Assembly: GCA_043754515.1 (NCBI GenBank)
Contig: JAYUUO010000282.1
Coordinates: forward strand, 1-64,000
Direction: 5' to 3'
DNA length: 64,000 bases
Source: Armatimonadota bacterium
GTDB lineage: Bacteria; Armatimonadota; Armatimonadia; Armatimonadales; Armatimonadaceae
Shown: positions 493-33,273 of the stretch, piece after piece
How the letters are laid out: each line of letters begins with the position of its first letter
Numbering within the stretch: the first letter of the stretch is position 1
Made by a program: the position numbers and the translations under genes
The notes under the pieces: generated by a model
The model's input: only the letters and a program-made list of their open reading frames with translations
What the model was told of the DNA's origin: nothing
Databases searched by the model: none

Positions 493-1802
493 ACAGGGCA
501 CATGGCGCCATCTCCCCATGCGAGCCGCTACGTCTGTGCGTGGTGAACGAGTTCTTCTACCCCGACGAAGCGGGGGGGACGGGGGCGGTTTTGACGCAAC
601 TCGCCTCGACCCTGTGCCGCTCCGGGGATATGGAGATCACGGTCATCACGAGCCGGAACGGCTACCGCTCCGGCACGGCGGACTATGCCGCGGATGAGGA
701 GTGGGAGGGGATACGGATTAAGCGGCTCCGGACCCCGTCGGCGCGGGGTAAGAATACGGTTTTTCGGCTCGCGGTCAATCTATGGTTCGGTCTCGCCGCG
801 CTCGGGCGGCTGATCACGGAACACCGGAAACAGCCCTTCGACGTGGTGCTTGCCGGGACCGCGCCACCTACCCTCGCGTTCTGCGTGCATTTCTTCCGCT
901 ATATGACCGGCGTGCCTTATGTTTACGTCGTGTATGATCTCGACCCGGATCGCGCGGTCATACTGGGCGTCTTGAAAGGCGATAGTATCGCGGCGCGCAC
1001 TCTACACGCCGCGCAACGGGCCTGGTTACACGGCGCGGCCCGGGTCGTCGTGCTGGGGCGTTGCATGGAGGAGTATCTGGGCGCGCGTTACGGACTAATG
1101 CCGGGACGCTCCGAGGTCATAGCCGTTGGTGCCGACCCGGACGCGATCCGCGACGCGCCGGACGACCCGGCATATCGCGACCTTATCGGACTGGGCCGGG
1201 GGGATTTCGTGGTCTGCTATAGCGGTAATTTCGGACGCTACCATAACTTCGACGCGCTTTTAGATGCCGCGCGTGTACTCCGGGGGGATCCGAGCGTGGT
1301 GCTACTACTCGTCGGGGACGGCGCGCAACGCGAACATATCGCGCGGCGTGTCTCTGCCGAGAAGTTGAGCAACGTGAAATTGATGCCGTTCGTGCCGAAG
1401 GACGATTATCCGCGGCTGTTGAGCGTCGCCGACGCTTCCGTGGTGACGCTGGAGCCGGGCATGGAGGGGTTGTGCGTACCGAGCAAGTTTTACAGCATCT
1501 TGGCGTCAGGGCGCGCGGTGCTCGCGCTGACCGCCCCCGCCTCCGAGGTCGCGCGGGTTGTCGCCGAAGAGCGGTGCGGCATACAGGCGGATCCGGGAGA
1601 TGCGGAGGGCATCGCGGTGGCGGTTCGTCGGCTACGGGACGAGCGCGAGGAGACCAGGGCGATGGGCGCGCGGGCGCGGGCCGCGCTCGTGAATCGGTTC
1701 TCGACCGCCGTGGTCGCCGAACGGTACAAGCGGGTTTTACAGACGGTTCGGGCGGCGCGGCATCAGCGAGACGTGGCGCCCGCCGTACCTATTCGGAGAT
1801 AA
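489..1802 (+). CDS. GT4 glycosyltransferase (WcaI/WbuB-like)
   Basis: NEFFYPD N-terminus, YSGNFGRYH, VPSKFYSILASGR; GTGA overlap with fcl. Confidence 0.9.
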   Translation: MNRAHGAISPCEPLRLCVVNEFFYPDEAGGTGAVLTQLASTLCRSGDMEITVITSRNGYRSGTADYAADEEWEGIRIKRLRTPSARGKNTVFRLAVNLWFGLAALGRLITEHRKQPFDVVLAGTAPPTLAFCVHFFRYMTGVPYVYVVYDLDPDRAVILGVLKGDSIAARTLHAAQRAWLHGAARVVVLGRCMEEYLGARYGLMPGRSEVIAVGADPDAIRDAPDDPAYRDLIGLGRGDFVVCYSGNFGRYHNFDALLDAARVLRGDPSVVLLLVGDGAQREHIARRVSAEKLSNVKLMPFVPKDDYPRLLSVADASVVTLEPGMEGLCVPSKFYSILASGRAVLALTAPASEVARVVAEERCGIQADPGDAEGIAVAVRRLRDEREETRAMGARARAALVNRFSTAVVAERYKRVLQTVRAARHQRDVAPAVPIRR

Positions 1803-1814
1803 CACACTTAAACT

Positions 1815-3989
1815 ATGGATGATTTGGGACTACAACGACCGGCGGCGGAAGCCGAACGCAACGTGACGCTCGCCGAATATATAGACATCGTCCGGCGCCG
1901 CCGTCTCATGATCGGCTATACGTTCACGACGATCACTATGGTGGGCATCGTGGCGACTCTACTGACCGCCCCCATTTACCGCGCCTCCGCCTACCTATTG
2001 GTGAAGGCACCCGATCTACGACTCAACCAGGTAGACGCGTCTAACCCGCTGTCCGACCTGTTCAGTGCCGCGCCGAGCTACAAGATTGAGACCCAGGTGC
2101 GCCTTTTGAAAAGCGCGGATCTGTTGCAAGCCGTGGCCAAAAAACTCGCGGTGCGCCGCCGCGAACTGCCGACGCTGAACGTGAAGGCCATTGAGGACAC
2201 CGACATCATCCAGGTGGACGCCGAGACGCTGAACGCGAAGCGGGCGGCACTGGTCGCAAACACCCTGCTTAACACCTATATAGATCAGACTTCGGAGATC
2301 AACGGGCGCGAAATACGCCGCGCGCTTCACTTCACCGAGGAGGGTGCCGCCAGGGCACAGAAGGATTTAGAGGACACCGAGCGGAGCCTGCGCCAGTTCG
2401 AGCAGAGCCATAAGGTGATCGAACTCGACAAAAACCGCGAAGCGCAGATAGCGCAGGTTCAGAGACTCACCGACGGGTACGATGCCCTGCAAACCAGTCT
2501 CGCGGCGACGAACTCGCGGCTTGCCGCGGCGAACAGCGAACTCGCCGCCGAATCGCCGGTCGAATCGGCGGTCGTGTCGGCGGATTCCGACCCAGCGGTG
2601 CAGTCCGCGCAATCCCTGCTCGCCGGGATCGAGGCGCAACGCGCCGGGCTGGTCAAACGGTACACGCCGGTCAACAAGCAGGTTGTCGCCCTCGACGCGC
2701 AGATCGCGGCGCAACGGGCGTACCTCCGGCACCTGCGCGGCGCGACTCGGGCGCGAAACGCGCGTAAGAACCCGGTCTATGATGCGATCCGGGAGCGGCG
2801 CGCGCTTTTACAAGAAACCGCGACCGGTGCCGCCGCCGAAGCCGCGAAGACCGCCGAACAACTCGCCGCCGCACGTACGCAGCTCGAACGGTTCCCCGCG
2901 TGGAAGCAACAGATGGCGCGCTTGCAACGGCAACTCGAAATCGCCAAATCGAACTACACGTTGCTTTCGGCAAAACGGGAGGACCTGCGGCTACGCGACC
3001 AGGTGCAACGCGTGGATGCTCGCGTGATGGAGTACGCGGCGGTACCGGAAGCCCCGATTCGCCCGCAGAAGGCACTCAATATCATCTTCGCCGCAGTCGC
3101 GGGCCTCGTGTTGGGTCTCGTCTTCGCGCTGGTTCAGGAGTACCTTGATGACCGGATCAACTCGCAGGACGAGGCAGAGCGCGTGTTTCATCTGCCGACG
3201 CTCGGACTCCTGCCCCTCGTGCCGGAGGAGGGATTGCGTCTGCTCAAAAGCACCAGGGCGTTCTCGCCGTTCACGGAAGCGTACCGCGGTCTGCGCACCA
3301 ACATCGGCTTCGCGGCGGTGGACAACCCGATCCGCACCCTGCTTATCACCTCGACAAGTCCGGGCGAAGGCAAGTCCCATATCGCGGCGAATCTCGCGAT
3401 AGCGATGGCGATGGAAGGGAGGCGCGTGGTAGTGCTGGACGCCGACCTGCGCCGGCCGACCCAGCACAAGCTGTTCGGCCTGGAACAAACGCCGGGGCTG
3501 ACCGACGTGCTAATCGGGACGCACAGCCTGTCCGACGTGCTCACCGACACCGACTTCGCGAACATTTCCCTCGTCACCGCCGGGTCGCAGGCGCCGAACC
3601 CCGCCGAACTGTTAGGATCGGAGGCGATGGCACGTTTAATAGACGCGATGCGCGGAACCGCCGACATCATTCTGGTAGATTCGCCGCCCGTGCTCGCCGT
3701 CTCCGACTCCGTTCTGTTATCGTCGCGAGTAGACGGCGTGCTGTTCGTCGCGTCGCACGCGGAGACGAAAAAAGGTAGTGGGCAACAGGCACTCCAGTTG
3801 CTGTCACGCGCCCGCGCCAAAGTGATCGGCACCGTCTTGAACAAGATTGACCCCAGGGATCGGGGCTACTACAACTACTACCACTATGAATACTCGCACA
3901 GCGACATCAAAAGCGGGGGCGAGAAGCCACGGTCACTGGTGAGCAACGGCGCGGGACAGTCACCGATAGGCGAAGAGGAGACGTCATGA
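1815..3989 (+). CDS. wzc: Polysaccharide co-polymerase / tyrosine autokinase
   Basis: Two TM segments flanking a coiled coil, PIRP motif, Walker A (SPGEGKS), DADLRRP, DSPP and a C-terminal Tyr cluster YYNYYHYEY. Confidence 0.93.
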   Translation: MDDLGLQRPAAEAERNVTLAEYIDIVRRRRLMIGYTFTTITMVGIVATLLTAPIYRASAYLLVKAPDLRLNQVDASNPLSDLFSAAPSYKIETQVRLLKSADLLQAVAKKLAVRRRELPTLNVKAIEDTDIIQVDAETLNAKRAALVANTLLNTYIDQTSEINGREIRRALHFTEEGAARAQKDLEDTERSLRQFEQSHKVIELDKNREAQIAQVQRLTDGYDALQTSLAATNSRLAAANSELAAESPVESAVVSADSDPAVQSAQSLLAGIEAQRAGLVKRYTPVNKQVVALDAQIAAQRAYLRHLRGATRARNARKNPVYDAIRERRALLQETATGAAAEAAKTAEQLAAARTQLERFPAWKQQMARLQRQLEIAKSNYTLLSAKREDLRLRDQVQRVDARVMEYAAVPEAPIRPQKALNIIFAAVAGLVLGLVFALVQEYLDDRINSQDEAERVFHLPTLGLLPLVPEEGLRLLKSTRAFSPFTEAYRGLRTNIGFAAVDNPIRTLLITSTSPGEGKSHIAANLAIAMAMEGRRVVVLDADLRRPTQHKLFGLEQTPGLTDVLIGTHSLSDVLTDTDFANISLVTAGSQAPNPAELLGSEAMARLIDAMRGTADIILVDSPPVLAVSDSVLLSSRVDGVLFVASHAETKKGSGQQALQLLSRARAKVIGTVLNKIDPRDRGYYNYYHYEYSHSDIKSGGEKPRSLVSNGAGQSPIGEEETS

Positions 3990-5155
3990 AAACACGGTTC
4001 TACATCGCGGGTTTGGCCTTTGCCATGTCGGGCACTTTCCCGGTAGCCGCCGCGCCGCCCGCCACCGTCGCGTCGGCACCGGCGTACGTGATCCAGGCGG
4101 ACGACGTGCTCGACATCAGCGTGGCGGGCGAGCCGGAGATGACCCGGAGCGTGACGGTCCTGCCGGACGGCACGATCACCTACCCGTATGCGGGCGAGAT
4201 CGTGGCGGCGGGGCTTACCACCGCCCAGGTGCGCCGCCGACTCACGGCGAAGGTTTCCCGACAGCTTGCCGCGCCCGAGATCGTCGTCTCCGTATCGCAC
4301 CGCGCGGAGCGGGACGCGAGTGTTCTCGGCGCGGTAAAAACACCGGGCAAGTTCGCCATCGGCCCCGGCTGGCGGTTACTCGACCTGCTCGCGCAAACCG
4401 GAGGCTTGCTCTCCGCGCGCCCGGAATGGGCGAGCGCGGTACTCGCGCGGCGCGTCGGCGCGGCGACCCCTGTCAATCTGCTACGCCTGATCACGCTCGC
4501 CGCCCCCGCCGACAACGTGCTGGTGGCGAAGGGCGACATCCTGATCGTGCGCGAGATAGACCAGGCGAAGACGCAGGTGCAGGTGCTGGGCGAGGTCGTG
4601 CGCCCCGGCACGTTCCCGATCCCGAGCGACGGGTCGGTGGCGGCGACACTCGCGGCGGCGGGCGGGCCGACAGCGGCGGCGGCACTGACGCGGGCGGCGG
4701 TCCTGCGCGGCGCGGACACTATCCCGCTCAACCTGCAAAGCCTGATGCGGGGCGGCAACCCGGTCGGCACCGTGGTCCTCCAGCCGGGCGACACCCTTAT
4801 CGTGCCGACGAACCGGCTGACGTTCGCGGTGTTCGGCGCGGTGGCGAGGCCCGGCGCGGTGGCGTACCCGGAAGACCGGAAGCTCGACTACCTGTCCGCG
4901 CTGTCGCTCGCCGGGGGGCAGGAGCGGGACGCGGATCTGAGGAAGGCGGTGCTACTGCGCCCGTCGCCGACGGGGGGCAAGCCGGCCGTGATCGAGGTCA
5001 ATCTGTGGGACGTGATGCGGAGGGGAGATATGGCCAGGAACGTAGCGGTTGAGCCGGGGGATGTGCTGTTTCTACCGGGTAAGGGTGGGGACAGCCGACT
5101 GACTACGCGAGACTTCTTGGGACTAGCGAGTCCGCTGTTGTTTCTTCTTCGTTAG
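3986..5155 (+). CDS. wza: Polysaccharide export (OPX) protein with SLBB repeats
   Basis: YVIQADDVLDISV...VLPDGTITYPYAG poly-export domain, three VLGxVxxPG SLBB repeats; ATGA overlap with wzc. Confidence 0.88.
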   Translation: MKTRFYIAGLAFAMSGTFPVAAAPPATVASAPAYVIQADDVLDISVAGEPEMTRSVTVLPDGTITYPYAGEIVAAGLTTAQVRRRLTAKVSRQLAAPEIVVSVSHRAERDASVLGAVKTPGKFAIGPGWRLLDLLAQTGGLLSARPEWASAVLARRVGAATPVNLLRLITLAAPADNVLVAKGDILIVREIDQAKTQVQVLGEVVRPGTFPIPSDGSVAATLAAAGGPTAAAALTRAAVLRGADTIPLNLQSLMRGGNPVGTVVLQPGDTLIVPTNRLTFAVFGAVARPGAVAYPEDRKLDYLSALSLAGGQERDADLRKAVLLRPSPTGGKPAVIEVNLWDVMRRGDMARNVAVEPGDVLFLPGKGGDSRLTTRDFLGLASPLLFLLR

Positions 5156-5220
5156 CCCGTGATGCCGATCCGCAGGTTCGGCCGGTTCGACACCCTGACA
5201 CTCAACGAGACGCTGACACA

Positions 5221-6600
5221 ATGACTACAGACACCGTGACGAAACGCTTGCTGGCTAACCTATCCGGTTCTGCCATCGGTAAACTACTCGTCGTCGCCCG
5301 GCAATTGTTTCTCGTGCCGCTCTTCTTGCACGTCTGGGGCGTCGAGGTGTACGGCCAGTACATCCTCCTGTCGGCGATTCCGACGATGTTAAATATGTCC
5401 AATCTCGGGATGGGCACGGCGGCGGGTATTTCCGTGTCGCTCGCGATCGCGGGCGGTAAGCGGGAGGAGGCCGGGCGCATCTACACGACGGGGCTTGCCA
5501 TCTCGCTCATGGTAGGGAGTGTCATCATCCTCGGCGGTTTCGCCCTCATAAAACTGTTCCCCGGCGCCTTCGTCCCTCTGTCAGGTATTGGCCACTCCCG
5601 ACTGATCCTCATTCTTCTGTTGGTCAGTTTAGCGTCCGACCAGGCGAACGAGGTGATGAATGGGGTGTACATCGGGTGCAAAAAAATGTCGGTGGCGTTC
5701 CAAATATCCAACTCCGTGCAAGCGGTCCGCCTCGCGGCGACGTTTTTCACCCTGTTGTGGCGACAGTCGCCGCTCGTGATCGTCACCGCCGATACCCTGA
5801 TCAACGTCCTGGCGACGCTGTTCTTTATAGTTCCGACCGTCAGGCTATGCCCTTACCTTTACAAGAACGGGTTCCGGTTTTATAAAGATTTAGCGGGGCG
5901 TCTTCTGGTCACGGGGATAGGGTTTCAGGCCGCCCCCCTGTGGCAAGCCATCCTTTTTCAGGGGTCGCTCTGGCTGGCGCAGATCACCCTAGGCGCGGTC
6001 GGCGTCGCGACCTGGAGTACGCTACGCGCTTTGTGCCGTTCCGTGAACCAATTCTATGAGATGCTCGTCGCGACTATTTATCCGGAAATACAACTCGCCA
6101 TCGGGAGCGGGAACTATGCCCTGGCCCGGAAGTTGCACGGATTGGCGGTATGCCTGAGCGTGGCTCTTGCCGGGTGTGCTTTGATACCGTTGAGCCTTTG
6201 CGGCCCGGTCGTCTACCGCCTATGGACGAATGGCGTTCTGACGGTTCCCCCCGTGATCTGGCCGCTACTCGGCTTGAGCGTCCTTGTTAGCTCCTTATTG
6301 ACTACGAGTGGCGTGGTTCACCGCGCCATGGGCCGCCCCTGGCTCCTCAACGGCGGCGGGATTATCACCGCGCTCCTATCCCTACTAGTTATGTATCTGC
6401 TCGCGGGCCATGTGGGTATCGTCGGTTTCGCCATCGGCGGGCTAGTGTTCGAGTCGGTCATGTCGGCACTCGTTCTGAGTTTCTCCCTGCGATGGCTGGG
6501 CGACACCTGCCCGACGATGGTTCGCAGGGCACGGTCTGATATTCGTGACAGCTCGGCGGGGTGGATACAGGCTTTGACGCTAGACCGCTCCCGCCCGTGA
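5221..6600 (+). CDS. wzx: Oligosaccharide flippase (Wzx-like)
   Basis: Multi-TM protein with LVPLFLHVWGVEVYG...NLGMG flippase N-terminus; EPS operon context. Confidence 0.8.
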   Translation: MTTDTVTKRLLANLSGSAIGKLLVVARQLFLVPLFLHVWGVEVYGQYILLSAIPTMLNMSNLGMGTAAGISVSLAIAGGKREEAGRIYTTGLAISLMVGSVIILGGFALIKLFPGAFVPLSGIGHSRLILILLLVSLASDQANEVMNGVYIGCKKMSVAFQISNSVQAVRLAATFFTLLWRQSPLVIVTADTLINVLATLFFIVPTVRLCPYLYKNGFRFYKDLAGRLLVTGIGFQAAPLWQAILFQGSLWLAQITLGAVGVATWSTLRALCRSVNQFYEMLVATIYPEIQLAIGSGNYALARKLHGLAVCLSVALAGCALIPLSLCGPVVYRLWTNGVLTVPPVIWPLLGLSVLVSSLLTTSGVVHRAMGRPWLLNGGGIITALLSLLVMYLLAGHVGIVGFAIGGLVFESVMSALVLSFSLRWLGDTCPTMVRRARSDIRDSSAGWIQALTLDRSRP

Positions 6601-6622
6601 CAGCCGCCGTGCGTGAAAAAAC

Positions 6623-7837
6623 ATGAACACTATGTCGGACCTACCAAGAAAAGTATCGCTGATCGTGCCGGGGAAGTTTCATCACTTCCATCTGGCACGC
6701 CAGTTGTTGCGCCGCGAGATGCTCGAGCGTGTCTTCACCTTCTATCCGATTCAGAAATTGATGGATCAGGGGATACCGCCGGAGCGCATCCGTCCGGTGC
6801 CATATCTTTTTTTGCTGTGGCATCTGATACAGGGGACGAGCTTGCGGGGGGGGGACTTCGCGCGCGGGGTCAACTGGGAGGCGGCGAAGTTTCTGGCAAC
6901 GACGGCAGCCGGCGAGATGCTAGACACCACGGAGGTGATTATCGGACTCTCCGGCTCCGGCCTCGAATCCGGTAGGAAAATCAAATCCCGCGGAGGCATC
7001 TACATCTGTGACCGGGGCTCGTCCCACATTCGTTATCAGAACAGGCTCATCGCCGAAGAGTTCGCGCGATGGAAACAGTCGTACCGCCAGGATGACGAAC
7101 GGGTGATGGCGCGCGAGGAAGAGGAGTATGAGTTGGCCGATTGCATCGTCATCCCCTCGGAGTTTACCAAACGGAGTTTCCTGGAACATGGTGTTCCGCG
7201 ACAGAAGTTACGCAAGGTACCCTACGGGGTTGACCTTTCCCGGTTCGGACCGATTGAGGAGCCTGACGCGAACACTTTCGATGTCCTCTTCGTGGGTGGT
7301 GTTTCTTTCCGAAAAGGGTTCCCTTACTTGCTGGAAGCCTTCGGCCACTTTAAGCACCCGAGTAAGCGACTCCGAGTCGCCGGACACGTCAGCCCGGAGA
7401 TAGAACGCTACTTGAAGGATTTCAGGCCGACGCTCGATCATGTCGAGTTTCTCGGGGTGATTCCGCACAGCAATCTCAAACGTCTCATGAGCTCGAGCCA
7501 CGCTCTAGTCCTTCCCAGCCTGGAGGAGGGACTGGCACTCGTTCAAGGCGAGGCTTTGGCCTGCGGTTGCCCTGTTATTTCTTCTGCTCATTCCGGTGGG
7601 GAGGACCTTTTTCAGGACGGAGTGGAGGGGTTTATAGTTCCGATCCGAGATAGCCTTTCCATCTCTGATCGTCTCACCCATCTCGCCGGGGACCGCGAAC
7701 TCCAGCAAAATATGCGGGCCGCGGCGATTGATGGTGCCAGACGAATCGGCGGTTGGGATGGTTACGGCAGTAATATGGTGTCCGTCATACACGAGGCCTG
7801 TCTGAGTAAGTCGAAATCACACGCGGGGTCGTCATGA
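6623..7837 (+). CDS. GT4 glycosyltransferase
   Basis: FVGGVSFRKG and VLPSLEEGLALVQGEALACGCPVI (E-X7-E motif). Confidence 0.92.
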   Translation: MNTMSDLPRKVSLIVPGKFHHFHLARQLLRREMLERVFTFYPIQKLMDQGIPPERIRPVPYLFLLWHLIQGTSLRGGDFARGVNWEAAKFLATTAAGEMLDTTEVIIGLSGSGLESGRKIKSRGGIYICDRGSSHIRYQNRLIAEEFARWKQSYRQDDERVMAREEEEYELADCIVIPSEFTKRSFLEHGVPRQKLRKVPYGVDLSRFGPIEEPDANTFDVLFVGGVSFRKGFPYLLEAFGHFKHPSKRLRVAGHVSPEIERYLKDFRPTLDHVEFLGVIPHSNLKRLMSSSHALVLPSLEEGLALVQGEALACGCPVISSAHSGGEDLFQDGVEGFIVPIRDSLSISDRLTHLAGDRELQQNMRAAAIDGARRIGGWDGYGSNMVSVIHEACLSKSKSHAGSS

Positions 7838-7919
7838 CAAACTACATGTCGGATTTGGTGCCACATACAGTAGCCGGTCTTTGCCTGTGCTGTTCTCAGG
7901 GTGCGGACAGTTGTGAGAG

Positions 7920-9143
7920 ATGGCCAATAACACGGGGCCAGCGATTAATATGAACGATGCCCCGGAACCTCCTAGTGGTCAGCGAACTAACCATTTAATT
8001 TACCTCGACTCTATACGCGGTTTAGCGGCGATGTACGTGGTTGTCTTCCATATGGGTATGGCCACCGGGATGGATCACTACGTCCGCTTATGGGGCTGGC
8101 TCGGCCAAGGACACTGGGCAGTCAACGCGTTCATAGTGCTATCAGGACATTGTCTGATGCTCCCCGTGCTCCGGAATGATCTTGCTCTGCGCGGTGGGGT
8201 CAAGTCGTTCTTGTTGAGGCGAGCGGGAAGGATTCTGCCGCCGTACTATTTCGCCTTCGCCACAACTCTGATATTTTGCTTCCTACTAAACGCGAACCTT
8301 GCCCCGCCGGATATAGCGAAACGTTTGAGCGCGACGAGTGCTCCGGGTGTACTCGCCCACCTGTTGCTGGTTCACGATATCTCCAGCGCGTTCATCTACC
8401 AGGCGGCACCGCCTTTCTGGTCTGTGGCAGTCGAGTGGCGCATCTACTTCGCATTCCCCGTGCTAATCTTTTTGTGGAGGCGATTCGGGGCGCTGGCAAC
8501 CACGGTGATTTCTATTGTCACGTCCTTAATACTGAGTGGCCTCCTTAGCTTAATATGGGTCAAGAACCACTCGGTGATGGGACACCCTTATATGATCACG
8601 GGGATCATGCCCCAGTACCTAGGCTTGTTCACTGTAGGCATGTTAAGTGCTCATGTTTCGTCCAATAGCGCGCTCTTAAGTAGCCGTAGCTTTGTTAAGC
8701 ATGTCACAGTTTCGTTGGCAACGGCGATTCTCGTTGTCGCTTATTCGCCGTATATAATTGTGAAAGGTCATGTTTTGCCGCCCGCCATAACGGACCACTT
8801 TGTCGGATACATAGTAGTAGCACTTCTCGTTTTAGTTTCGACGTCACCTGTAGCTAAGACAGCACTCAGTTGGAAGCCCCTTGTGTTTGTCGGCGGCTTT
8901 TCTTACAGCATCTACCTGATCCATGCACTCGTCATATATTCCCTACAAACGTATGTGATCGGGGTGTTGATGCCAGCACAAACTCCCGCGACCGGGTTCC
9001 TCTTCATGCTGGTCTTTGGAATCCCCGCCGTGTTCGTGATCAGTTACATCATGTATCGGCTAGTGGAACTACCGTCAATGCGCTCGACGCGAAGAATACC
9101 TTTCTCAGGTTCGGGCGTGAGTGCTACGCAACCCGGCACATGA
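7920..9143 (+). CDS. Acyltransferase family 3 (OafA-like O-acyltransferase); real start may be ATG 7950
   Basis: YLDSIRGLAA, FIVLSG, RRAGRILPPYY, WSVAVEWRIY, FSYSIYLIH, LVELP motifs; multi-TM. Confidence 0.92.
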   Translation: MANNTGPAINMNDAPEPPSGQRTNHLIYLDSIRGLAAMYVVVFHMGMATGMDHYVRLWGWLGQGHWAVNAFIVLSGHCLMLPVLRNDLALRGGVKSFLLRRAGRILPPYYFAFATTLIFCFLLNANLAPPDIAKRLSATSAPGVLAHLLLVHDISSAFIYQAAPPFWSVAVEWRIYFAFPVLIFLWRRFGALATTVISIVTSLILSGLLSLIWVKNHSVMGHPYMITGIMPQYLGLFTVGMLSAHVSSNSALLSSRSFVKHVTVSLATAILVVAYSPYIIVKGHVLPPAITDHFVGYIVVALLVLVSTSPVAKTALSWKPLVFVGGFSYSIYLIHALVIYSLQTYVIGVLMPAQTPATGFLFMLVFGIPAVFVISYIMYRLVELPSMRSTRRIPFSGSGVSATQPGT

Positions 9144-9155
9144 TCGGCACACTAA

Positions 9156-10304
9156 ATGATTAATAATAAAGATCGCGTACTTTTTGTCCCGCATCTCGTC
9201 GCCTTCGGCGGCGGCGAGCGCGTCTACCTGGCCCTCTCTCGATTCCTGCATGAGAGGGGCATTCCCCACCGGATCGCTACGTACACGCAAGGGATTAATC
9301 TACAAGATCACGCCGACTGGCCCCTCACGGTACAGACTGTCAAACCGGAAGGCTCTTTTCTGCCCAGACCGAACGGGCTAAGGCGGCTCGTCAGTGAGCA
9401 GGCCAGGGCGGGATCACCTCCGCCGATATTGGTCGGTATCCAAGCCGCGACGCATCTTTCGGCGACTCTGGGGGGGCAAAGAAATCGTTCCGTACCTTAC
9501 TCGGTCATGGTCCTCGACGCGCCGAGTAAGATGGGAATCACCTCGGCAAAATCGCGCGGCGGACCTCGCCGCTTCGCCCGAAATATGTTGAATCGGTTCT
9601 TCGGTCGCGCCGGACTCAACCATGCTAACAATTTGTCCATTATCAGCGAAACGCAGGCTCGCGAAATGCAAACGTTGTACGGCCGGAAACCACAAGTCAT
9701 TTATCCCGGAATCAGACTCCCGACGGAGACGCGTGACCGCCGCCACTTCCGCGGGGTCTTCCGTTTCCTGTCCGTGTGTCGGCTCGAAGGCAACAAGCGT
9801 TTGGAGTGGATTATGGAATCACTTGCTCGCTTGGAACACACAGGAGGCAACAAGGCTCGTTTGTCGGATTTAGTGCCATGGCATCTAGATATAGTCGGGC
9901 ATGGAAGTCTCGCGGGAAAATTGGAACGCCTTTGCGACTCGCTTGGCATACGTGCTTTTACTACATTTCATGGTCTGGTATCGGACGACCGGTTGGACGA
10001 AATATATGCGCAAGCGGGGATGTTTTTAATGCCCGCCAATCAAGGTTACGGTCTACCGGCACTCGAAGCATTGGCGCGGCGCGTACCCGTGGTGATGCAT
10101 CAGGAGAGTGGTGTGAGCGAGATCTTGCGGAATTCCCCGTGGGTGGGGATGATTTACGGAAGCGATACGAGTTCCCTGACCGTCGGTATCGAGGAGATGG
10201 TCGGGCACGTCCTTGCCGGAGCGTTAGAGGGTGTGGCACCGCCCGAATTCCCCACGGATGAAGAGTGGGCGGCGCGGGTCTGCGCGTTTTGTGATTGGCT
10301 GTAG
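9156..10304 (+). CDS. GT4 glycosyltransferase
   Basis: FGGGERV N-terminus, VCRLEGNKR, QGYGLPALEALA. Confidence 0.88.
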   Translation: MINNKDRVLFVPHLVAFGGGERVYLALSRFLHERGIPHRIATYTQGINLQDHADWPLTVQTVKPEGSFLPRPNGLRRLVSEQARAGSPPPILVGIQAATHLSATLGGQRNRSVPYSVMVLDAPSKMGITSAKSRGGPRRFARNMLNRFFGRAGLNHANNLSIISETQAREMQTLYGRKPQVIYPGIRLPTETRDRRHFRGVFRFLSVCRLEGNKRLEWIMESLARLEHTGGNKARLSDLVPWHLDIVGHGSLAGKLERLCDSLGIRAFTTFHGLVSDDRLDEIYAQAGMFLMPANQGYGLPALEALARRVPVVMHQESGVSEILRNSPWVGMIYGSDTSSLTVGIEEMVGHVLAGALEGVAPPEFPTDEEWAARVCAFCDWL

Positions 10305-11368
10305 TGAACTTTATGAATATTTTGTATCTCGGTGTTGATAAAGGTACGACTAAACAGCGGGTCCAGGCCCTCCGACGATTAGGGCATGGCGTGGTCATCT
10401 GCCCTCCCGAACAGTTCGTTCCGGGGGAGGGCGTGCTTTCTAAAATCCACTGGGAGACGGGGGGGCTGATGATCGCCGAACGAGTACGCAAATCGGTTAT
10501 CGCGGCGGTACCGACTTCACTGAAATTCGATTGCGTGCTCGTTGATGGCGGGCGGTATGTCAGCCCGGCTCTCGTCCGGGATCTGCGGTCGCGGTTCGGA
10601 CCGGTGGCACTGTTCAACCATGACGACCCATTCGGCTGGCGTGACCGGCTCTCCTGGTTGTTGTTCCGGAGCGCGGTCTCTGAATATGATCTCGTGGTAG
10701 TCGTCCGAACGCCAAACCTGTCCGAGGCGAAGGGACTGGGTGCGAAGCGGGTTCTTCATGTGTACCGCTGTGCCGACGAAATCGCACACGCCCCCCGCCC
10801 GATTTCTACCGAAGACCGGGCGCGGTTCGATAGCGATGTACTGTTTCTAGGAACGTGGATGGGCCAGCGCGGTGCCTTCTTGCGGGAGTTGAGAGCACTC
10901 GGCGTGCCAATCACCATACAAGGGAGTAGCTGGCAAAAATGTCCGGAGTGGTTGGATTTGAGGGACTCGTGGCGCGGGCCTGCTCTGGATGATGCGGACG
11001 GCTGTGATTACTCGAAAGCCATCCAATGCGCCAAGATCTCGCTCGGTTTCCTATCCAAGGGAAACCGTGATTCGCACACGACGCGCAGTATGGAGATACC
11101 GTACATGGGTGGTTTACTATGCGCCGAGCGGACGGACGAGCACCTCGGGCTGTATGTGGACGGTAAAGAAGCCGTGTTCTGGTCCGACGTAACCGAATGT
11201 GCGGCGATCTGCCGGGAACTGCTAGCTAACGACGAGAAGCGCGCCGCGATAGCCCACAACGGTCGGATCCGCGCGCTTCAGAATGCCAATACGAACGAGG
11301 CCCTGGGACGACGGATACTAGACGCCTTAGTTCCAGTTCCGAAGGGGGTTAGGACACTACTAATATGA
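10304..11368 (+). CDS. Glycosyltransferase (CgeB / Glyco_trans_1_2-like)
   Basis: FNHDDPFG, DVLFLGTW, AKISLGFLSKGNRDSHTTRSMEIP, ERTDEH. GTG start overlaps the previous TAG; alternative ATG at 10313. Confidence 0.82.
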   Translation: MNFMNILYLGVDKGTTKQRVQALRRLGHGVVICPPEQFVPGEGVLSKIHWETGGLMIAERVRKSVIAAVPTSLKFDCVLVDGGRYVSPALVRDLRSRFGPVALFNHDDPFGWRDRLSWLLFRSAVSEYDLVVVVRTPNLSEAKGLGAKRVLHVYRCADEIAHAPRPISTEDRARFDSDVLFLGTWMGQRGAFLRELRALGVPITIQGSSWQKCPEWLDLRDSWRGPALDDADGCDYSKAIQCAKISLGFLSKGNRDSHTTRSMEIPYMGGLLCAERTDEHLGLYVDGKEAVFWSDVTECAAICRELLANDEKRAAIAHNGRIRALQNANTNEALGRRILDALVPVPKGVRTLLI

Positions 11369-12588
11369 TCACGAACCGCTATCGGGTCGCTTACTTCGTT
11401 TCCCATCCCATCCAATATCAGGCCCCTATGCTTAGATATATCGCAGATCATTCGGATATTGATGTCGAGGTCTTTTTCATCAGCGACTTCTCGATACGCG
11501 GATACAGAGACGAGGGGTTCGGCGGGATCACGGTGAAGTGGGACGTCCCCTTACTGGAGGGCTACAAGCACGAATTCCTTCCGGTGTGGGGGAGGCGTGG
11601 CGAGGTGTCGTCTCTCAGCCCGTTCTGCCACGGTGTGTTCTCACGGTTGCGAAGGGGGCACTTCGACGCGGTTTGGTGCCACGGCTGGGCACAGGTCACC
11701 ACACTACAGGCCATCCTGGCGGCGCGATTGTTAAAGATTCCGGTGCTGTTGCGGTGCGACGCACAAATAGTGAGTGCATTACGCCGTCCCGCGACGCGTG
11801 TCATCAAGGAAAAGTCGCTCCGAACGATCTTCTCCTGGGCGTCCGGCCTTCTCGCTGTCGGCCTGCATAACCGCGCGTATTATAGCCATTATGGGGTGCC
11901 GGATGACAAAATATATTCCGTGCCGTATGCGGTGGATAACGATTTTTTCCAGCGCAAGGTCGCCCTCGCGAAGCCGAACCGCGAGACCTTGCGCGCGGAA
12001 CTCGGTTTAACGGCACACCGTCCGGTGATCCTCTATGTTTCAAAGTTTGAATCCCGTAAGCGTGCGAATGACTTGCTGGAGGCATATACCCGTCTATCCG
12101 AGGACGGGCGAGTCGAACCGGAGCCTTACCTACTTTTCGTGGGCGATGGGGTGGAAAGAGCCGGGATGGAGACCCGCGCGGCCGCGACCGGCTGGTCTTC
12201 GATAAAGTTTCTCGGGTTCAAGAACCAGTCCGAACTCCCGGCACTGTTTGATCTGTGTGACGTGTTCGCCCTCGTGTCCGAGCGCGAGCCGTGGGGACTG
12301 ATCGTGAACGAGGTTATGAACGCGGGCAAGCCGGTCATCGTCAGCGAGGGTGTCGGCGCGGCACCTGATCTCGTCCGTGACGGGGTGAATGGGTTCGTGA
12401 CGCCGGTGGGCGACATAGCGTGCCTTGCCGACCGCTTGCGGCGGGTGACTTCGGATGCGACGCTCCGCGACAAGATGGGCGCGGCGAGCCTGGAAATCAT
12501 CAACGGCTATGACTTCCGCGCGGATGTAGCGGGGCTGACATCCGCGTTGCGCTCGGTCACGGGGCGCGGCGCGGCGGTGGAGCCATGA
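11365..12588 (+). CDS. GT4 glycosyltransferase
   Basis: SHPIQYQAP, WDVPLLEGY, EPWGLIVNEVMNAGKPVI. Confidence 0.92.
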   Translation: MITNRYRVAYFVSHPIQYQAPMLRYIADHSDIDVEVFFISDFSIRGYRDEGFGGITVKWDVPLLEGYKHEFLPVWGRRGEVSSLSPFCHGVFSRLRRGHFDAVWCHGWAQVTTLQAILAARLLKIPVLLRCDAQIVSALRRPATRVIKEKSLRTIFSWASGLLAVGLHNRAYYSHYGVPDDKIYSVPYAVDNDFFQRKVALAKPNRETLRAELGLTAHRPVILYVSKFESRKRANDLLEAYTRLSEDGRVEPEPYLLFVGDGVERAGMETRAAATGWSSIKFLGFKNQSELPALFDLCDVFALVSEREPWGLIVNEVMNAGKPVIVSEGVGAAPDLVRDGVNGFVTPVGDIACLADRLRRVTSDATLRDKMGAASLEIINGYDFRADVAGLTSALRSVTGRGAAVEP

Positions 12589-13745
12589 AATCGGCACTGA
12601 AGGTGGTGATGGTCGGCAACTTCGGCCCCGACGCGCAACACAGTATGGGAGGGTTTGCGTCCGCGCTTCTCGCCGGGATGCCGGATCACGAGACGCGAGT
12701 CGAAATGATCGCCCCCCGCCCGATCGTGTCGCGGAACGTCAAGCACCACGCCGTTGGGGTCGGGAAATGGCTCGCCTACGTGGACAAGTATGTGCTGTTC
12801 CCGAAGCAACTCCGCGAGCGGGCGCGCCGCGCCGATGTGCTACATATTTGTGATCAGGGTAACGGCATCTACGCGTCACAGGCGAAAGGCATCTGTCCGG
12901 TACTTTTGACCTGCCACGACCTGTTCGCCATCCGCGCGGCGCGGGGCGAGGGCGGGATGTGGCAGGTATCTAAAACGGGAAGGGCGTATCAGAAGTTGAT
13001 CTGGCGCGGGATCACGCAGGCGACGAACATCGCTTGCGACACTGATGCCACCCGGAACGATCTTCTGCGACTGCTAACAATTCCGGGGTGCTACTCGGTG
13101 GTGCCGATGGTATCGCGCGTGCTCATCGGAATGTGCAGACCCTACGCCCGGCTAGGAGCCGCCGAGTCCGAGGAGCTATTACGCGGCTCCGGGGTGCCCG
13201 ATAGCGAACCTTTCTTGCTACATGTCGGAGGTAATCAGGCTTATAAGAACCGGATAGGAGTGTTGTCTATCTATGGGTCGCTCCGCGCCCGGTTATCGCC
13301 CTGTCCGCCCCTGGTTCTTGCCGGTAGGCCGATGACGGAGGCTATGCGCGTGTTAGTAAGCGAGCAAGGATTGGGAGGAAGCGTCATAGAACTGACCGGG
13401 GCGAGCGACACGCAGATAAACGCCCTGTACTCGCGCGCCGTCGGCCTCCTATTCCCCTCCCTGATGGAGGGTTTCGGGCTACCGATCATTGAGGCGCAAG
13501 CCTGCGGCTGTCCGGTGTTCACGACGAACGCGGCCCCGATGACCGAGGTCGGCGGGAGCGCGGCTATCTATCTCGACCCGAGCGACCCCGAGGGCGCGGC
13601 GCGGATCGTCGCCGACGCACTCTCCAAGCCGGATAGGATGGCGCAATGTCAACGGGACGGTTATCGGAACGTCGCCGAGCGTTTCCCGGCGGAACGTATG
13701 ATCGAGGACTACCGAAAACTCTACCGGGAGATGTCGGGCGTATGA
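12585..13745 (+). CDS. GT4 glycosyltransferase (MtfB-like)
   Basis: TCHDL, LLHVGGNQAYKN, FPSLMEGFGLPIIEAQACGCPV. Confidence 0.92.
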   Translation: MKSALKVVMVGNFGPDAQHSMGGFASALLAGMPDHETRVEMIAPRPIVSRNVKHHAVGVGKWLAYVDKYVLFPKQLRERARRADVLHICDQGNGIYASQAKGICPVLLTCHDLFAIRAARGEGGMWQVSKTGRAYQKLIWRGITQATNIACDTDATRNDLLRLLTIPGCYSVVPMVSRVLIGMCRPYARLGAAESEELLRGSGVPDSEPFLLHVGGNQAYKNRIGVLSIYGSLRARLSPCPPLVLAGRPMTEAMRVLVSEQGLGGSVIELTGASDTQINALYSRAVGLLFPSLMEGFGLPIIEAQACGCPVFTTNAAPMTEVGGSAAIYLDPSDPEGAARIVADALSKPDRMAQCQRDGYRNVAERFPAERMIEDYRKLYREMSGV

Positions 13746-13773
13746 CCGCTGACAAAGAAGAGAGGGTGAGCGT

Positions 13774-15276
13774 ATGACGAAAACTCTGCCTTACGCGCGG
13801 AACGCTTCGCCGGCGGTTTCCGCGCTGACAAACAACCCGTTGCTCTACTGGCTGCTCGGGTCTATCGCGCTGGCGATGGGGCTGATGGTCACCGGCAGTG
13901 ACATCGTTTACGCCTTGCTGGTGGGCTGTTTCGCCCTTCTGACGGGGATGACGTTCCATGCCGTCGGTGGCTTTCACACCGTGATCGGGGTTTGCGTGCT
14001 GAATTTGGCGTGCCAGCACGTCCTCATCTCGCAGGTAGCGAAGGTCATCTACAACGAGCGCGCCGACACCCCCCTTTACGAGCCGGTACAAACGTTGTGC
14101 GTCTATTGCGTGGGGATGGCGAGTCTCCTCGCGGGGGCATACTTCCTCCGCGCGGTTCATATTATGGAGAAGCCGTCGGCACTCGTCCCCCGGTTCGAGC
14201 AACGCTGGTTGCTGACATTCGCGCTACTCTCTACGTTTGCCACTTTCGCGCGGTTTCTAATCATAATGGCATTCAGCCATCAGACGGGCGGCATCATCGG
14301 CCCGGTTAGATCCGCCGAAATAATCCCCTCAATGGCGGTCGCCGCATCCACCGTTTATACGATTTGCGAGAGCAAGGGGCGACGTAGTCTGTCGTGGGTG
14401 AACGGGCTATCACTTTTCACGATCTTCGCCTTCGCGGTAGTTAGTGCCGGGCGCAGTTCTATGTTCATGTGCCTAATCACCTATTCCGTCACTTGTCTGG
14501 CGTATGGCTACAAACTCCGCATAAAGCATCTGATCTGCTTCGCGCTGCTAGGTTTCGTCGCCAATGTATACTTGTTCCCCTACGCTCTTTATGCGCGTAA
14601 CTTCACGCGAACCAGCGACGTCGGCAAGAACACCTCCCGCGCCCGGGACCTACTTATTGATGTCGTGCAGGACCCTCGGAAGTATGCGGAAAGAACAAAT
14701 ACGCACCATTACGAATCCAGTGCGCAACGTCGTATCGAACGATATTTCGACACCGTCGAAAGCACCATGGGGCGCTATCACGTGATGAGTTCGGTGGACG
14801 CGGTTGTTTCCTCTTCGCAAGATAAGCAAGAGTACGGATGGAGGACGATCAAGCCGGTAGTCGGGATGTTGTCGCCGGGGTTTCTGAACCCCAACAAACA
14901 CATCGTCCAAACGTCTAATCTGCTGGCGCATAGCGCGAGAGGTTTGGTGAGCGAGGAGGATAAAACGACAGGGATAACGCTGGGCTTCTTCTGCGACGCT
15001 TATGCCAGTTTTCGCTGGATCGGCATCATCATTACGCCGTTCCTTCTGCTCGTCGGGCTATCGGTAACGGTTCAGAAGTGCTTTGGTCTGCAGTTGAGAC
15101 ACAATTTCTTTGCCCTCGCGGCGGTGATACCCATGGCGTGGGCTTTTTCCGAACAGACCATCGCCGCGAACATACTGGGCATCGAAGGCGTGCTAGTTTC
15201 CACCGGCATCTACTTCCTGTTCGGCCATGTCTCGACGGTCTTGTCGGACGCTCCGCGTAGGGCGTCCGTGGAGTAG
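13774..15276 (+). CDS. Putative oligosaccharide repeat-unit polymerase (Wzy-like)
   Basis: About 11 TM segments with a large periplasmic loop. It is the only unassigned polytopic protein in a wzx/wzc/wza locus, so the call rests on topology and context. Confidence 0.6.
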   Translation: MTKTLPYARNASPAVSALTNNPLLYWLLGSIALAMGLMVTGSDIVYALLVGCFALLTGMTFHAVGGFHTVIGVCVLNLACQHVLISQVAKVIYNERADTPLYEPVQTLCVYCVGMASLLAGAYFLRAVHIMEKPSALVPRFEQRWLLTFALLSTFATFARFLIIMAFSHQTGGIIGPVRSAEIIPSMAVAASTVYTICESKGRRSLSWVNGLSLFTIFAFAVVSAGRSSMFMCLITYSVTCLAYGYKLRIKHLICFALLGFVANVYLFPYALYARNFTRTSDVGKNTSRARDLLIDVVQDPRKYAERTNTHHYESSAQRRIERYFDTVESTMGRYHVMSSVDAVVSSSQDKQEYGWRTIKPVVGMLSPGFLNPNKHIVQTSNLLAHSARGLVSEEDKTTGITLGFFCDAYASFRWIGIIITPFLLLVGLSVTVQKCFGLQLRHNFFALAAVIPMAWAFSEQTIAANILGIEGVLVSTGIYFLFGHVSTVLSDAPRRASVE

Positions 15277-15283
15277 CCCGACT

Positions 15284-16444
15284 ATGAAACATCTGCACGT
15301 TATAGCGAGCGTCAACCCGGAAGGGGGCGGTCCCATCGAAGGGATACGCCAAATATCGGCCGTCGCTAAGCAACTAGGGTATGCCGTCGAGGTGGCGTCG
15401 CTAGACAGCCCCGACGCACCATTCCTGCGTGATTTCCCGATCCCTGTTCATCCGCTCGGCCCGATGGTGGGTCGGTACGGGTACACGAGTCGCTTGGTCC
15501 CCTGGCTGAGAGCGAATGCTGGCGACTACGACATCGTCATTTTGAACGGCATATGGATGTATTCGTCGTTCGGAGGTCACCTCGGGTTGAAGGATAGCGG
15601 CGTGCCCTACGTCGTTTTCACACACGGGATGCTGGATCCGTACTTCAAAACGTTCCCGCTGAAGCACCTGAAAAAGTCCCTGTACTGGCCGTTGGCGGAA
15701 TACCGAGTGTTACGCGACGCGGCGGGGGTGTGCTTTACCTGCGAGGAGGAGAAAATCCTGGCCAGGGGATCGTTCGCGCCTTACCGGTGCAACGAAATCG
15801 TGGTGAACTATGGCACCGCCGGACCCCCGCGCGGCGGGGTGAACGAAGCCGCGCAACGCGCCGCGTTTGTAGAAGCATTCCCTGAACTAGCCGGGAAGCG
15901 CCTCCTCCTATTTCTGAGCCGCATCCACCCTAAAAAGGGATGTGATCTGCTGATTGATGGGTTCGCCGCCGTGGCGAAATTATATCCTACGCTCCGACTC
16001 GTTATGGCGGGGCCGGACCAGACGGGGTGGAAAGCGGAACTCTCGGCGAGAGCAGCGAAGGCGGGCGTCGCCGACCGAATCACCTGGGCGGGGATGCTGT
16101 CCGGGGACAAGAAGTGGGGCGCGTTCCGTTGCGCCGAGGCATTCGTCCTGCCGTCGCACCAGGAGAACTTCGGTATAGTCGTCGCGGAAGCCCTCGCCTG
16201 CGGTACGCCAGTGCTAATAACGACGAAGGTCAATATTTGGCGGGAGATAGAAAGCGACGGGGCGGGCTTGGTCGAGAGTGATACCGGAGAAGGAATTACT
16301 CGGCTACTAACGCGCTGGTTACATCTCCCGGACGCGGAACGCCAGCGGATGCGCGAGGCCGCCCAGACCTGTTTCCTGTCACGGTTTGAGATCGAGAGCG
16401 CGGCGCATAGCCTGTTCCGCGTCCTCACGGCGTACAAAAAGTAG
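15284..16444 (+). CDS. GT4 glycosyltransferase
   Basis: MKHLHVIASVNPEGGGP, HGMLDP, FLSRIHPKKG, SHQENFGIVVAEALACG; ATG 15284 follows GGAG. Confidence 0.93.
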   Translation: MKHLHVIASVNPEGGGPIEGIRQISAVAKQLGYAVEVASLDSPDAPFLRDFPIPVHPLGPMVGRYGYTSRLVPWLRANAGDYDIVILNGIWMYSSFGGHLGLKDSGVPYVVFTHGMLDPYFKTFPLKHLKKSLYWPLAEYRVLRDAAGVCFTCEEEKILARGSFAPYRCNEIVVNYGTAGPPRGGVNEAAQRAAFVEAFPELAGKRLLLFLSRIHPKKGCDLLIDGFAAVAKLYPTLRLVMAGPDQTGWKAELSARAAKAGVADRITWAGMLSGDKKWGAFRCAEAFVLPSHQENFGIVVAEALACGTPVLITTKVNIWREIESDGAGLVESDTGEGITRLLTRWLHLPDAERQRMREAAQTCFLSRFEIESAAHSLFRVLTAYKK

Positions 16445-16603
16445 ATAGCGTAAGTCAAGTACGAGGATCGTGTGCCGCGATCAGGCGGGGGATATACTAA
16501 CTAATGGCCGTAAGCTACTACAGGAAGAAAGCACCCACTCAGGCACAGCGCGGTAAATCTTCCGCCATAACTTTATTCGCGCGACAAGTTCGAGGAAGTA
16601 GCC

Positions 16604-17833
16604 ATCACTAAACCCATCCCTACAGAACCTAGCCTGACCCTCCCTATTTCTCTGAACGAAAATCAGCGGAACACAAAACAAAGCAGTCTACATCTACGAT
16701 ATTTAGATGGCTTACGTGGCGCGGCGGCACTCTACGTAGTGCTTTATCACGTACAGCTTTTCACGGGGCTTTATGGAGCGACATCACGCTGCCCCGTATG
16801 GCTCCGGTACTGCGCGGCGTGGTTGACGTATGGGCACTATGCGGTACCTGTGTTCATCGTACTTTCTGGCTACTGTATCTTCCTCCCTTTAATGCGAAAA
16901 CGGCCAAACTACGGCTATCCATGGCTTAAAGAGTTCTTTAAACGCCGAGCACGTCGGATTTTACCAGCCTATTATGCCGCGTTGATCACCGCCGTCGGGT
17001 TGGTTTATGCTAGCAAAGTCGCACATCTAATCGAAACGGATGGGCATCTGAATGCCACGGATATTTTATCCCATCTGTTTCTCGTGCATAATTGGACGAT
17101 CTACTCGCGCGCCCTTGACGGACCAATGTGGAGTGTCGCGGTGGAGTGGCAAATATATTTTATTTTCGCAATCGCTCTATTACCCGTTTTCCTTCGTTTT
17201 GGGATGATTGCGGTAGTATCGGTCGCTTTTATAGTCGGTATTATCCCTCACCTCTTTCTCCGAAATCATACCTACGACGATCAAGCGACTTTTTACGTCG
17301 TCGGGTTTGCCTTCGGCATGGCAGCATCCTGGGTGAATTTTTCCCCTGATGAACGCGCATTCATTCTCAGGAGTCACATCCCCTGGCTGCAAATTTCGCT
17401 TGTCGCTATGGCAGTGGTGATAACTCTGTGTGCCGTGCACCCGATCGCAGTTTTTCAGTTAGGTCAAATACCGTTCCTTCCGAATTGGGCGGCGGATGGT
17501 GTCGTCGAGATGATGTCCGCGATGTTGATCATCGGTCTAACTAAAATAGCCTTGACTTCTGGTGGCAAAGACGGAATTGTTATTCATCTCCTCGAACATC
17601 CATGGCTTGTCAGGTTTGGGATATTTTCCTACAGCGTGTATCTCGTTCATCAATTGCTTTTACGCGTTTTTGTAGATTTCTTCGCGAAACATATGTTTCA
17701 CCTTGATGAGATGGGGTCGTTCTGTCTTGTGATAGCTACGTTGCCAGTCTTGATATACCTTTGTTACTTATTTTATCTTGTTTTTGAACGCCCATTCATA
17801 TCAAAAGCTAAAGTTAGCGAGGCCGCTGGATGA
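16604..17833 (+). CDS. Acyltransferase family 3 (second paralog); start uncertain, probably non-canonical
   Basis: Frame is open from 16571 and contains LRYLDGLRGAAALYV upstream of the track's GTG 16739. Also FIVLSGY, RRARRILPAYY, WSVAVEWQIY, FSYSVYLVH, FERPF. Confidence 0.88.
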   Translation: MTKPIPTEPSLTLPISLNENQRNTKQSSLHLRYLDGLRGAAALYVVLYHVQLFTGLYGATSRCPVWLRYCAAWLTYGHYAVPVFIVLSGYCIFLPLMRKRPNYGYPWLKEFFKRRARRILPAYYAALITAVGLVYASKVAHLIETDGHLNATDILSHLFLVHNWTIYSRALDGPMWSVAVEWQIYFIFAIALLPVFLRFGMIAVVSVAFIVGIIPHLFLRNHTYDDQATFYVVGFAFGMAASWVNFSPDERAFILRSHIPWLQISLVAMAVVITLCAVHPIAVFQLGQIPFLPNWAADGVVEMMSAMLIIGLTKIALTSGGKDGIVIHLLEHPWLVRFGIFSYSVYLVHQLLLRVFVDFFAKHMFHLDEMGSFCLVIATLPVLIYLCYLFYLVFERPFISKAKVSEAAG

Positions 17834-17948
17834 ACCTCAGAGGATGCCGTTCCGCGCGGCTCACTATGCTCCCGGTTATAGTGTGCGCGACTTTCGGGTC
17901 GCCCCCTGTTGGTACGCTGGAGTTTGCCAGGGAGAGATTTACCAAAAG

Positions 17949-19106
17949 ATGAAGATAACTATTGTACAAGGGGCGTTTCTGCCGGTTCCTCCCGTGATGG
18001 GTGGGGCCGTGGAAAAGGTCTGGTACGCCCTCGGCAGTGAGTTTGCGCGTAGCGGTCATGAAGTCACTCACATCTCGCGCGGATACGGCGATCTCCCAAC
18101 CATGGAAACTCACGCCGGAGTCTTCCACCACCGTGTTCCTGGCTACGATACGCCATCGTCTTTAGCGAAGTTGAAGGCACTTGACCTCCTGTATTCGATT
18201 CGCGTGTTGCGCTCGTTGCCGCGCGCCGACATCCTCGTAACCAATACGTTCTGGCTACCCGTCCTCGCGCAACACATTCAGCGGCGAGTCGGCCGCTTAT
18301 ATGTCCACGTTCAGCGTTACCCGAAAGGGCAGATGGGATTATATAGCAAGTCTGCTCGCTTACAAACGGTGTCGAAGGTAATCGCGAACGCCATCAAGGG
18401 GCAGTCTCCGAACAGTGCCGCCAGAGTCAATGTGATACCGAATCCCCTTCCGGGAAGCGCGTTCTCCGACGCTGTCATCCCGATCGCTGACCGCCCAAAA
18501 CGGATACTTTTTGTAGGAAGAATCCACCCGGAGAAGGGGATCGAACTCCTTCTCGCCGCGTTCGCCCGGCTAGTGAATGGGGACGAACACAAGAAGGATT
18601 GGCGGCTGATCGTCGTCGGCCCGTGGGAAAGTAAATTCGGCGGCGGGGGCGGGCTTTTCATGGATAAGTTACGTGAGCAGTCGCGAGTCGGGTTCGGCGA
18701 TCCCGGAAAGGTCGAATGGGTCGGGCCAGTCTTTGACGCATCCTTGCTACGGATGCACTTCGAGAATAGTCGTATTTTCGTTTACCCGTCGCTCGCGGGC
18801 AAGGGTGAGGCATCCCCGGTAGCGCCGCTCGAGGCGATGGCTTGCGGGTGTGCCACGCTAGTATCCGACCTGGAGTGCTTCCGCGATTACCTGACCCCGG
18901 ATGTCAATGGATTCGTGTTTGATCATCGCGGTGAGGGTGGAGCACTCCGCCTCGCCGTGAGACTCCTGGAATTAACCGATGCTCCCGAGACATTACAGGC
19001 TGTAGCGACACAAGGTATCATCACGGCAAGAACTTTCGCCGCCGAGACTGTATCGCGTGCTTACTTGAACGACTTCGACCGTGTGCTGGCGGAAGCGAAG
19101 CCGTGA
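17949..19106 (+). CDS. GT4 glycosyltransferase
   Basis: MKITIVQGAFLPVPPVMGGAVEK, FVGRIHPEKG, GEASPVAPLEAMACG; GGAGAG upstream. Confidence 0.92.
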   Translation: MKITIVQGAFLPVPPVMGGAVEKVWYALGSEFARSGHEVTHISRGYGDLPTMETHAGVFHHRVPGYDTPSSLAKLKALDLLYSIRVLRSLPRADILVTNTFWLPVLAQHIQRRVGRLYVHVQRYPKGQMGLYSKSARLQTVSKVIANAIKGQSPNSAARVNVIPNPLPGSAFSDAVIPIADRPKRILFVGRIHPEKGIELLLAAFARLVNGDEHKKDWRLIVVGPWESKFGGGGGLFMDKLREQSRVGFGDPGKVEWVGPVFDASLLRMHFENSRIFVYPSLAGKGEASPVAPLEAMACGCATLVSDLECFRDYLTPDVNGFVFDHRGEGGALRLAVRLLELTDAPETLQAVATQGIITARTFAAETVSRAYLNDFDRVLAEAKP

Positions 19107-33239: not shown

Positions 33240-33273
33240 CGCAACGCCCCATTTTCGATGCGGGCGGTGCGCC

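Follow-up and report, generated by a model that had tools for sequence, protein, structure and literature searches.

A dense cluster of bridging mini-ORFs between the genes of an exopolysaccharide operon in an Armatimonadota bacterium

Tests of overlapping gene pairs have shown that termination-reinitiation couples translation in 13 of 14 -4/-1 overlaps (PMC6728339), and that such coupling is strongly distance dependent, a gap of 38 nt lowering reinitiation by 80-100% in E. coli (PMC10666635). In the interspersed repetitive units of mycobacteria (MIRUs), a short open reading frame (ORF) is coupled at -4 to the flanking gene, and in ribosome-delivering upstream ORFs (uORFs) and bicistronic designs the only job of the short ORF is to bring the ribosome to the next gene (PMC12548453). 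In integrons, the ribosome leaving a cassette restarts on a spacer ORF (the attC short ORFs, or ORF-11, ORF-17 and ORF-18 of attI1) and proceeds to the next cassette by termination-reinitiation, the peptide sequence of these ORFs being of little importance (PMC8876359). Here we describe the gaps of a Wzx/Wzy-type exopolysaccharide (EPS) operon of an Armatimonadota bacterium, in a stretch of 64,000 nt that was analysed as a whole (the window; assembly GCA_043754515.1, contig JAYUUO010000282.1, positions 1 to 64,000). Six of these gaps are bridged by a short ORF that starts on, or just past, the stop of one gene and ends on the start of the next. The cluster is real and unusually dense; it has a modest echo in the rest of the genome, and its conservation is weak.

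Geometry of the bridges

The operon and its six mini-ORFs are as follows.

49-20529, forward strand: Wzx/Wzy-type EPS operon, 17 co-directional genes
5159-5224, forward strand: 21-codon mini-ORF; GTG 3 nt past the wza TAG, stop overlapping the ATGA of the flippase-like gene
6597-6626, forward strand: 9-codon bridge, GTGA...ATGA, from the flippase-like gene to a GT4 gene
7834-7953, forward strand: 39-codon bridge from GT4 to acyltransferase 1; ATGA overlap only if that gene starts at 7950, not 7920
9140-9163, forward strand: 7-codon bridge from acyltransferase 1 to GT4, ending in an 8-nt overlap (ATGATTAA)
13742-13777, forward strand: 11-codon bridge from GT4 to the polymerase-like gene
17830-17952, forward strand: 40-codon bridge from acyltransferase 2 to GT4; Shine-Dalgarno (SD)-like motif upstream of the bridge ATG

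All six lie where a preliminary description of the window had placed them, are open throughout and end as it described. A stop/start overlap or a spacing of a few nt is present at both ends of the bridges: upstream it is -4 in five and +3 in one, and downstream -4 in five (one of them ambiguous) and -8 in one. Four bridges have the form RTGA...ATGA, one of them only with the start at 7950. The bridge concerned, at 7834, ends on the second in-frame ATG of acyltransferase 1; judged by the N-terminal lengths of homologues, the ATG at 7920 would be an equally or more likely start, and the overlap with the bridge would then be 34 nt, not ATGA. Of 120 homologues of the GT4 gene that follows the 17830 bridge, 95 bear the motif, and 87 of these start at the position of 17949, which supports this start. 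The 5159 mini-ORF, which lies in the wza frame two codons beyond the wza TAG, is the weakest of the six and has no SD-like site. Between 5153 and 5224, 22 further codons of the wza frame are open past the TAG and lead to the ATGA of the gene that follows, as would be expected if wza once overlapped that gene and acquired a premature stop or is read through.

The junctions at 7837, 9143 and 17833 are also spanned by near-identical contigs that four other studies assembled, with 0 gaps among the alignment rows listed, so these three are not assembly errors.

Gene starts, and the total of 4551 genes, were taken from our own gene-calling model. The operon comprises an epimerase, a WcaI-like glycosyltransferase, wzc, wza, seven further glycosyltransferases, two Acyl_transf_3 genes, a WcaF-like acetyltransferase and two membrane proteins, the latter labelled flippase-like (wzx) and polymerase-like (wzy) from position and hydrophobicity, without a family match. 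Among its 16 junctions, seven overlap or abut, one has a 7-nt gap and eight have gaps of at least 10 nt. RTGA ends 11 of the 17 genes, as against 971 of 4551 genome-wide, which points to an operon with past overlaps.

Two of the eight gaps are unbridged, and the features found there are these.

1799-1822, forward strand: gap with geometry like that of the 9140 bridge; ATA only, not counted as a bridge
16504-16611, forward strand: 35-codon ORF with its own strong SD-like site, 59 nt past the upstream stop; its TAA overlaps ATC 16604 by 8 nt

The first gap (1802/1815) has the same geometry with only an ATA, as the preliminary description had it. The second, between 16444 and the second acyltransferase gene, has no start at the upstream stop and was absent from that description. 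No ATG, GTG or TTG precedes the conserved N-terminal motif of acyltransferase 2, the frame of which is open from 16571; it is possible that the in-frame ATC at 16604 is a near-cognate start fed by the 16504 uORF, or that the gene is decaying. A contig from another study spans most of 16504-16742 gap-free.

Excess over the genomic background

As background we took the 940 gaps of 10-150 nt that lie outside the locus. By the rules of the preliminary description, six of the eight locus gaps of at least 10 nt are bridged (five if acyltransferase 1 starts at 7920), compared with 27/940 elsewhere in the genome. Gaps that follow an RTGA stop make up 5/8 in the locus and 127/940 outside it (p=0.002), and in all five of these locus gaps the bridge meets the next start in an overlap of -4 or -8, for which length-matched controls gave rates of 0.07-0.22 each. 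The bridging had been called systematic, and the agreement of frames was expected in about one gap in three by chance. Bridging is indeed above chance in the locus, but two of its gaps are unbridged and the excess does not extend to gaps of 51-150 nt. The null of one in three was wrong, since the bridges span all three gap-length classes (length mod 3 equals 1 four times, 0 once and 2 once), and the real background is lower.

Because the locus was picked post hoc out of a very large scan, odds at the level of the locus overstate the case and a genome-wide test with the locus excluded carries more weight. In this test, the frame opened at an RTGA stop was compared with the frame at stops without a start codon, and the gap class with length mod 3 equal to 2 was dropped from both groups. 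In gaps of 10-50 nt, the frame from the RTGA stop meets the next start in a canonical overlap in 17/38 cases, versus 38/221 controls (permutation expectation 8.2, p=0.0007); for short gaps, bridging is above chance in the rest of the genome too. With the locus included, a shuffle null gave 28/47 against 17.9 expected, the controls standing at 82/264 against 90. In the EPS loci of other genomes, counted with a start rule that missed two junctions of the present locus and left 261/862 junctions without an ATG, strict bridges number 7/35 against 3.0 expected, two of the seven being near duplicates.

Weakly filtered relics or neutral scars

Our favoured reading, which we judge about equally likely to be right or wrong, is that the mini-ORFs descend from former ATGA overlaps and have passed a weak filter that preserves termination-reinitiation. 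The ancestral operon would have been tightly ATGA-coupled; short duplications or insertions during cassette shuffling would have opened gaps, and variants in which the new frame ended on the next start would have been retained at a higher rate, given the steep loss of coupling over 20-40 nt. A ribosome ending at an RTGA would restart on the overlapping RTG, read 7-40 codons, stop at the start of the next gene and restart again, the bridge peptides themselves presumably having no role. We infer that the bridges are translated, that the downstream genes depend on them and that selection acts on them. The genes at 5221, 6623 and 9156 would be the likeliest to need the relay because they have no SD-like site of their own. 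At the bridge starts of the locus an SD-like motif is found in 2/5, the background being about 10%; the anti-SD was assumed from general knowledge, as no 16S end was found in the assembly.

Two bridges bear traces of how their gaps may have opened. The 13742 bridge is a degenerate 32-nt tandem duplication of an SD and ATGA junction, with 15/19 bases alike (p 0.005-0.03), and at the 9140 bridge CGGCACA is repeated with a period of 11 across the first ATGA (empirical p 0.018). These traces suggest that both are duplicated stop/start junctions, and are suggestive only because nine junctions were tested. The earlier proposal that the ORFs are scars of glycosyltransferase swaps lacks direct support: no bridge peptide matches any gene end, the gaps are not repeats and the peptides have no match in the genome or the loci compared. 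Nine gap queries against the genome returned no repeat family; for one of them, 33 nt of the 17833 gap found a second place below E 0.01, and the gaps are mutually unlike. An origin from repeat elements was rejected, as the gap sequences are not repeated in the genome. A relic of a gene start at 7834, suggested by a likeness between its first codons and the beginning of the GT4 at 6623, was rejected because 72/1000 shuffles scored as well. A search for internal promoters and terminators gave 10 promoter-like sites against 7.5 expected and 25 terminator-like sites against 17.8, none of them informative.

In relatives, the junction from wzx to GT4 was bridged in one of two orthologous cases: in genome G036 a GTGA...ATGA bridge crosses 118 nt with 41 codons of unrelated sequence (chance about 0.04), and G013 has none. 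Seven other bridged junctions of this genome were traced in relatives, five of them with gene order that made them testable. At the other two, ftsY and thrB, gene order is kept in 1/28 and 0/4 relatives. The best candidate for a maintained relay lies outside the EPS operon.

33236-33283, forward strand: 15-codon bridge from an ABC permease to its ATPase (junction 33239/33274)

At this junction, 10/20 relatives with both genes have a direct ATGA overlap. In 3/3 relatives that combine an RTGA stop with a gap (16, 144 and 175 nt), the open frame reaches +4, +20 and +10 relative to the next start, at a chance of 0.17-0.37 each; two of the three are congeners, and in one a TTG is an alternative start. 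The inserts differ among four genomes (loci L128, L129 and L145 besides the present one), that of G002 being a GTGGTCA-type inverted repeat. The expectation that the frame would be conserved while the peptide is not was thus borne out at one orthologous junction (G036) and in one other operon (ABC), but neither upstream of wzy nor at four of the five other testable junctions.

Several results weigh against a filter of this kind. Outside the locus, gaps of 51-150 nt, the size of three of the six bridges, show no excess (6/59 vs 32/302), and the relatives G008 and G036 (2.0 Mb, an underpowered sample) give 4/15 vs 33/246, in the same direction with p=0.13. In the EPS loci of other genomes, loose bridges reach 10/35 against 7.7 and their control is raised too, 55/173 against 41. 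Upstream of wzy, a bridge was found in 0/9 homologous loci, mostly with other neighbours; counts in relatives were 0/3 for exbD, 0/19 for the C189 ABC junction and 0/17 for nadK, and at pstA/pstB the sole relative with an RTGA and a gap is unbridged. Genome-wide, the relays carry no duplication signal, and an SD-like motif lies inside the upstream gene at 87/210 (41%) of real -4 overlaps versus 3/23 relay starts (p=0.007). In the locus itself, an SD-like site precedes each of the genes at 13774 and 17949.

Neutral scars, the main rival, offer a possible, though somewhat unlikely, account of the same gaps: junctions that once overlapped would keep an RTGA at both ends, with formerly coding or duplicated sequence inside, the frames would agree by luck and the downstream genes would start alone. 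Such scars would account for the excess of RTGA and for the traces of duplication with no selection involved, and would agree with the poor conservation, with the SD-like sites at 13774 and 17949 and with relay starts that lack an SD mark. Against them, five out of five frames end in a canonical overlap at about one third each (0.4%); outside the locus, gap lengths mod 3 favour the relay class (23/38 vs 94/221), and bridges recur with different inserts.

Chance, combined with flexible rules and the picking of the best locus from a very large scan, is a quite unlikely explanation. The rules admitted three frame classes, a GTG set off from the stop and a second ATG, short gaps are easily bridged (0.27-0.40 in controls under loose rules) and an ATG followed by A yields a TGA automatically; against this, bridges by the rules of the preliminary description occur in just 27 of the 940 other gaps, and the genome-wide excess persists with the locus removed.

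All eight gaps of at least 10 nt flank a predicted membrane-protein gene, whereas pairs of soluble enzymes overlap directly, and it is conceivable, although very improbable, that the gaps are spacers in which the ribosome, without leaving the mRNA, switches between a translocon-bound and a free state. Genome-wide, 6/23 relays and 127/943 other gaps flank a protein with at least three predicted helices (p=0.12; the gap class of this count and of the SD count, n=966, includes some long overlaps that the set of 940 excludes). The membrane-protein genes are also the most swapped, those beside the gaps form the lowest-GC part of the operon, and wzc and wza overlap directly. That the mini-ORFs encode functional small peptides, as the 39-40 codons of two of them might hint, deserves hardly any credence: no homologue of a bridge peptide was found in the genome or in the 106 loci compared, no peptide is conserved, and the bridge at the orthologous junction of G036 is unrelated in sequence.

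Other features of the operon and the genome were recorded alongside. Every operon gap of at least 7 nt in window 1-20529 flanks a membrane-protein gene. The two acyltransferases have the lowest GC content (52% and 48%, genome 62%) and look like recent acquisitions. The polymerase-like membrane protein (13774-15276) has no Pfam or NCBIfam match; in a sample of 300 other genomes of the phylum it was found in 7, among EPS-type neighbours. The related EPS clusters of relatives (L013-L026, L371) contain the same genes in different orders, that of G065 with up to four acyltransferase genes, and no close copy of the two EPS genes searched was found in same-genus genomes. An SD-like motif precedes 41-48% of starts overlapped at -4 and lies at about 10% of other gene ends (this genome and samples of G008 and G036), and SD-like sites are rarer at starts that follow long gaps (32% vs 61%, by energy); in this lineage, the use of SD motifs seems to go with reinitiation. 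In the remainder of the window, PheT (60502-62586) matches its family model only from model position 163, and its N-terminal domains may be absent or its start call short.

Comparison with known systems

If the bridges work, operon gaps regarded as non-coding can be constrained in their reading frame: the gene that follows would be silenced by a 1-nt change in the spacer before it, and cassettes would shuffle into polysaccharide operons only where the relay survives. Comparing start-capable with start-less stops by gap length is a cheap test, applicable to thousands of genomes. A much broader claim, which we consider unlikely, would be that the 20-kb operon is a near-unbroken ribosome relay over every swapped membrane-protein cassette, and that a repeat-independent frame filter shapes short spacers across bacterial genomes, leaving a hidden class of unannotated linker ORFs and making indels in operon spacers potentially polar.

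No paper on repeat-independent bridges in EPS operons was found in a literature search whose coverage mostly excluded subscription journals and left out supplements. The mechanism itself is already known from MIRUs, integrons and synthetic bicistronic designs. The short ORFs of MIRUs would work alike, although MIRUs are a repeated, apparently mobile family, whereas the six gaps have no sequence in common and do not recur as genomic repeats. Integron ORF-11 has its own SD and a de novo start, while the bridges described here start on the upstream stop and are flanked by EPS genes; no integron was seen at the locus, though no search aimed at attC sites or an integrase was made. Ribosome-delivering uORFs sit in the 5' leader and the bridges lie between two long genes; the 16504 ORF is closer to the uORF type than the bridges are. 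Termination-reinitiation pairs have the same ATGA geometry as each end of a bridge. Compared with simple -4/-1 pairs, two overlaps are here chained through an unannotated ORF of 7-40 codons.

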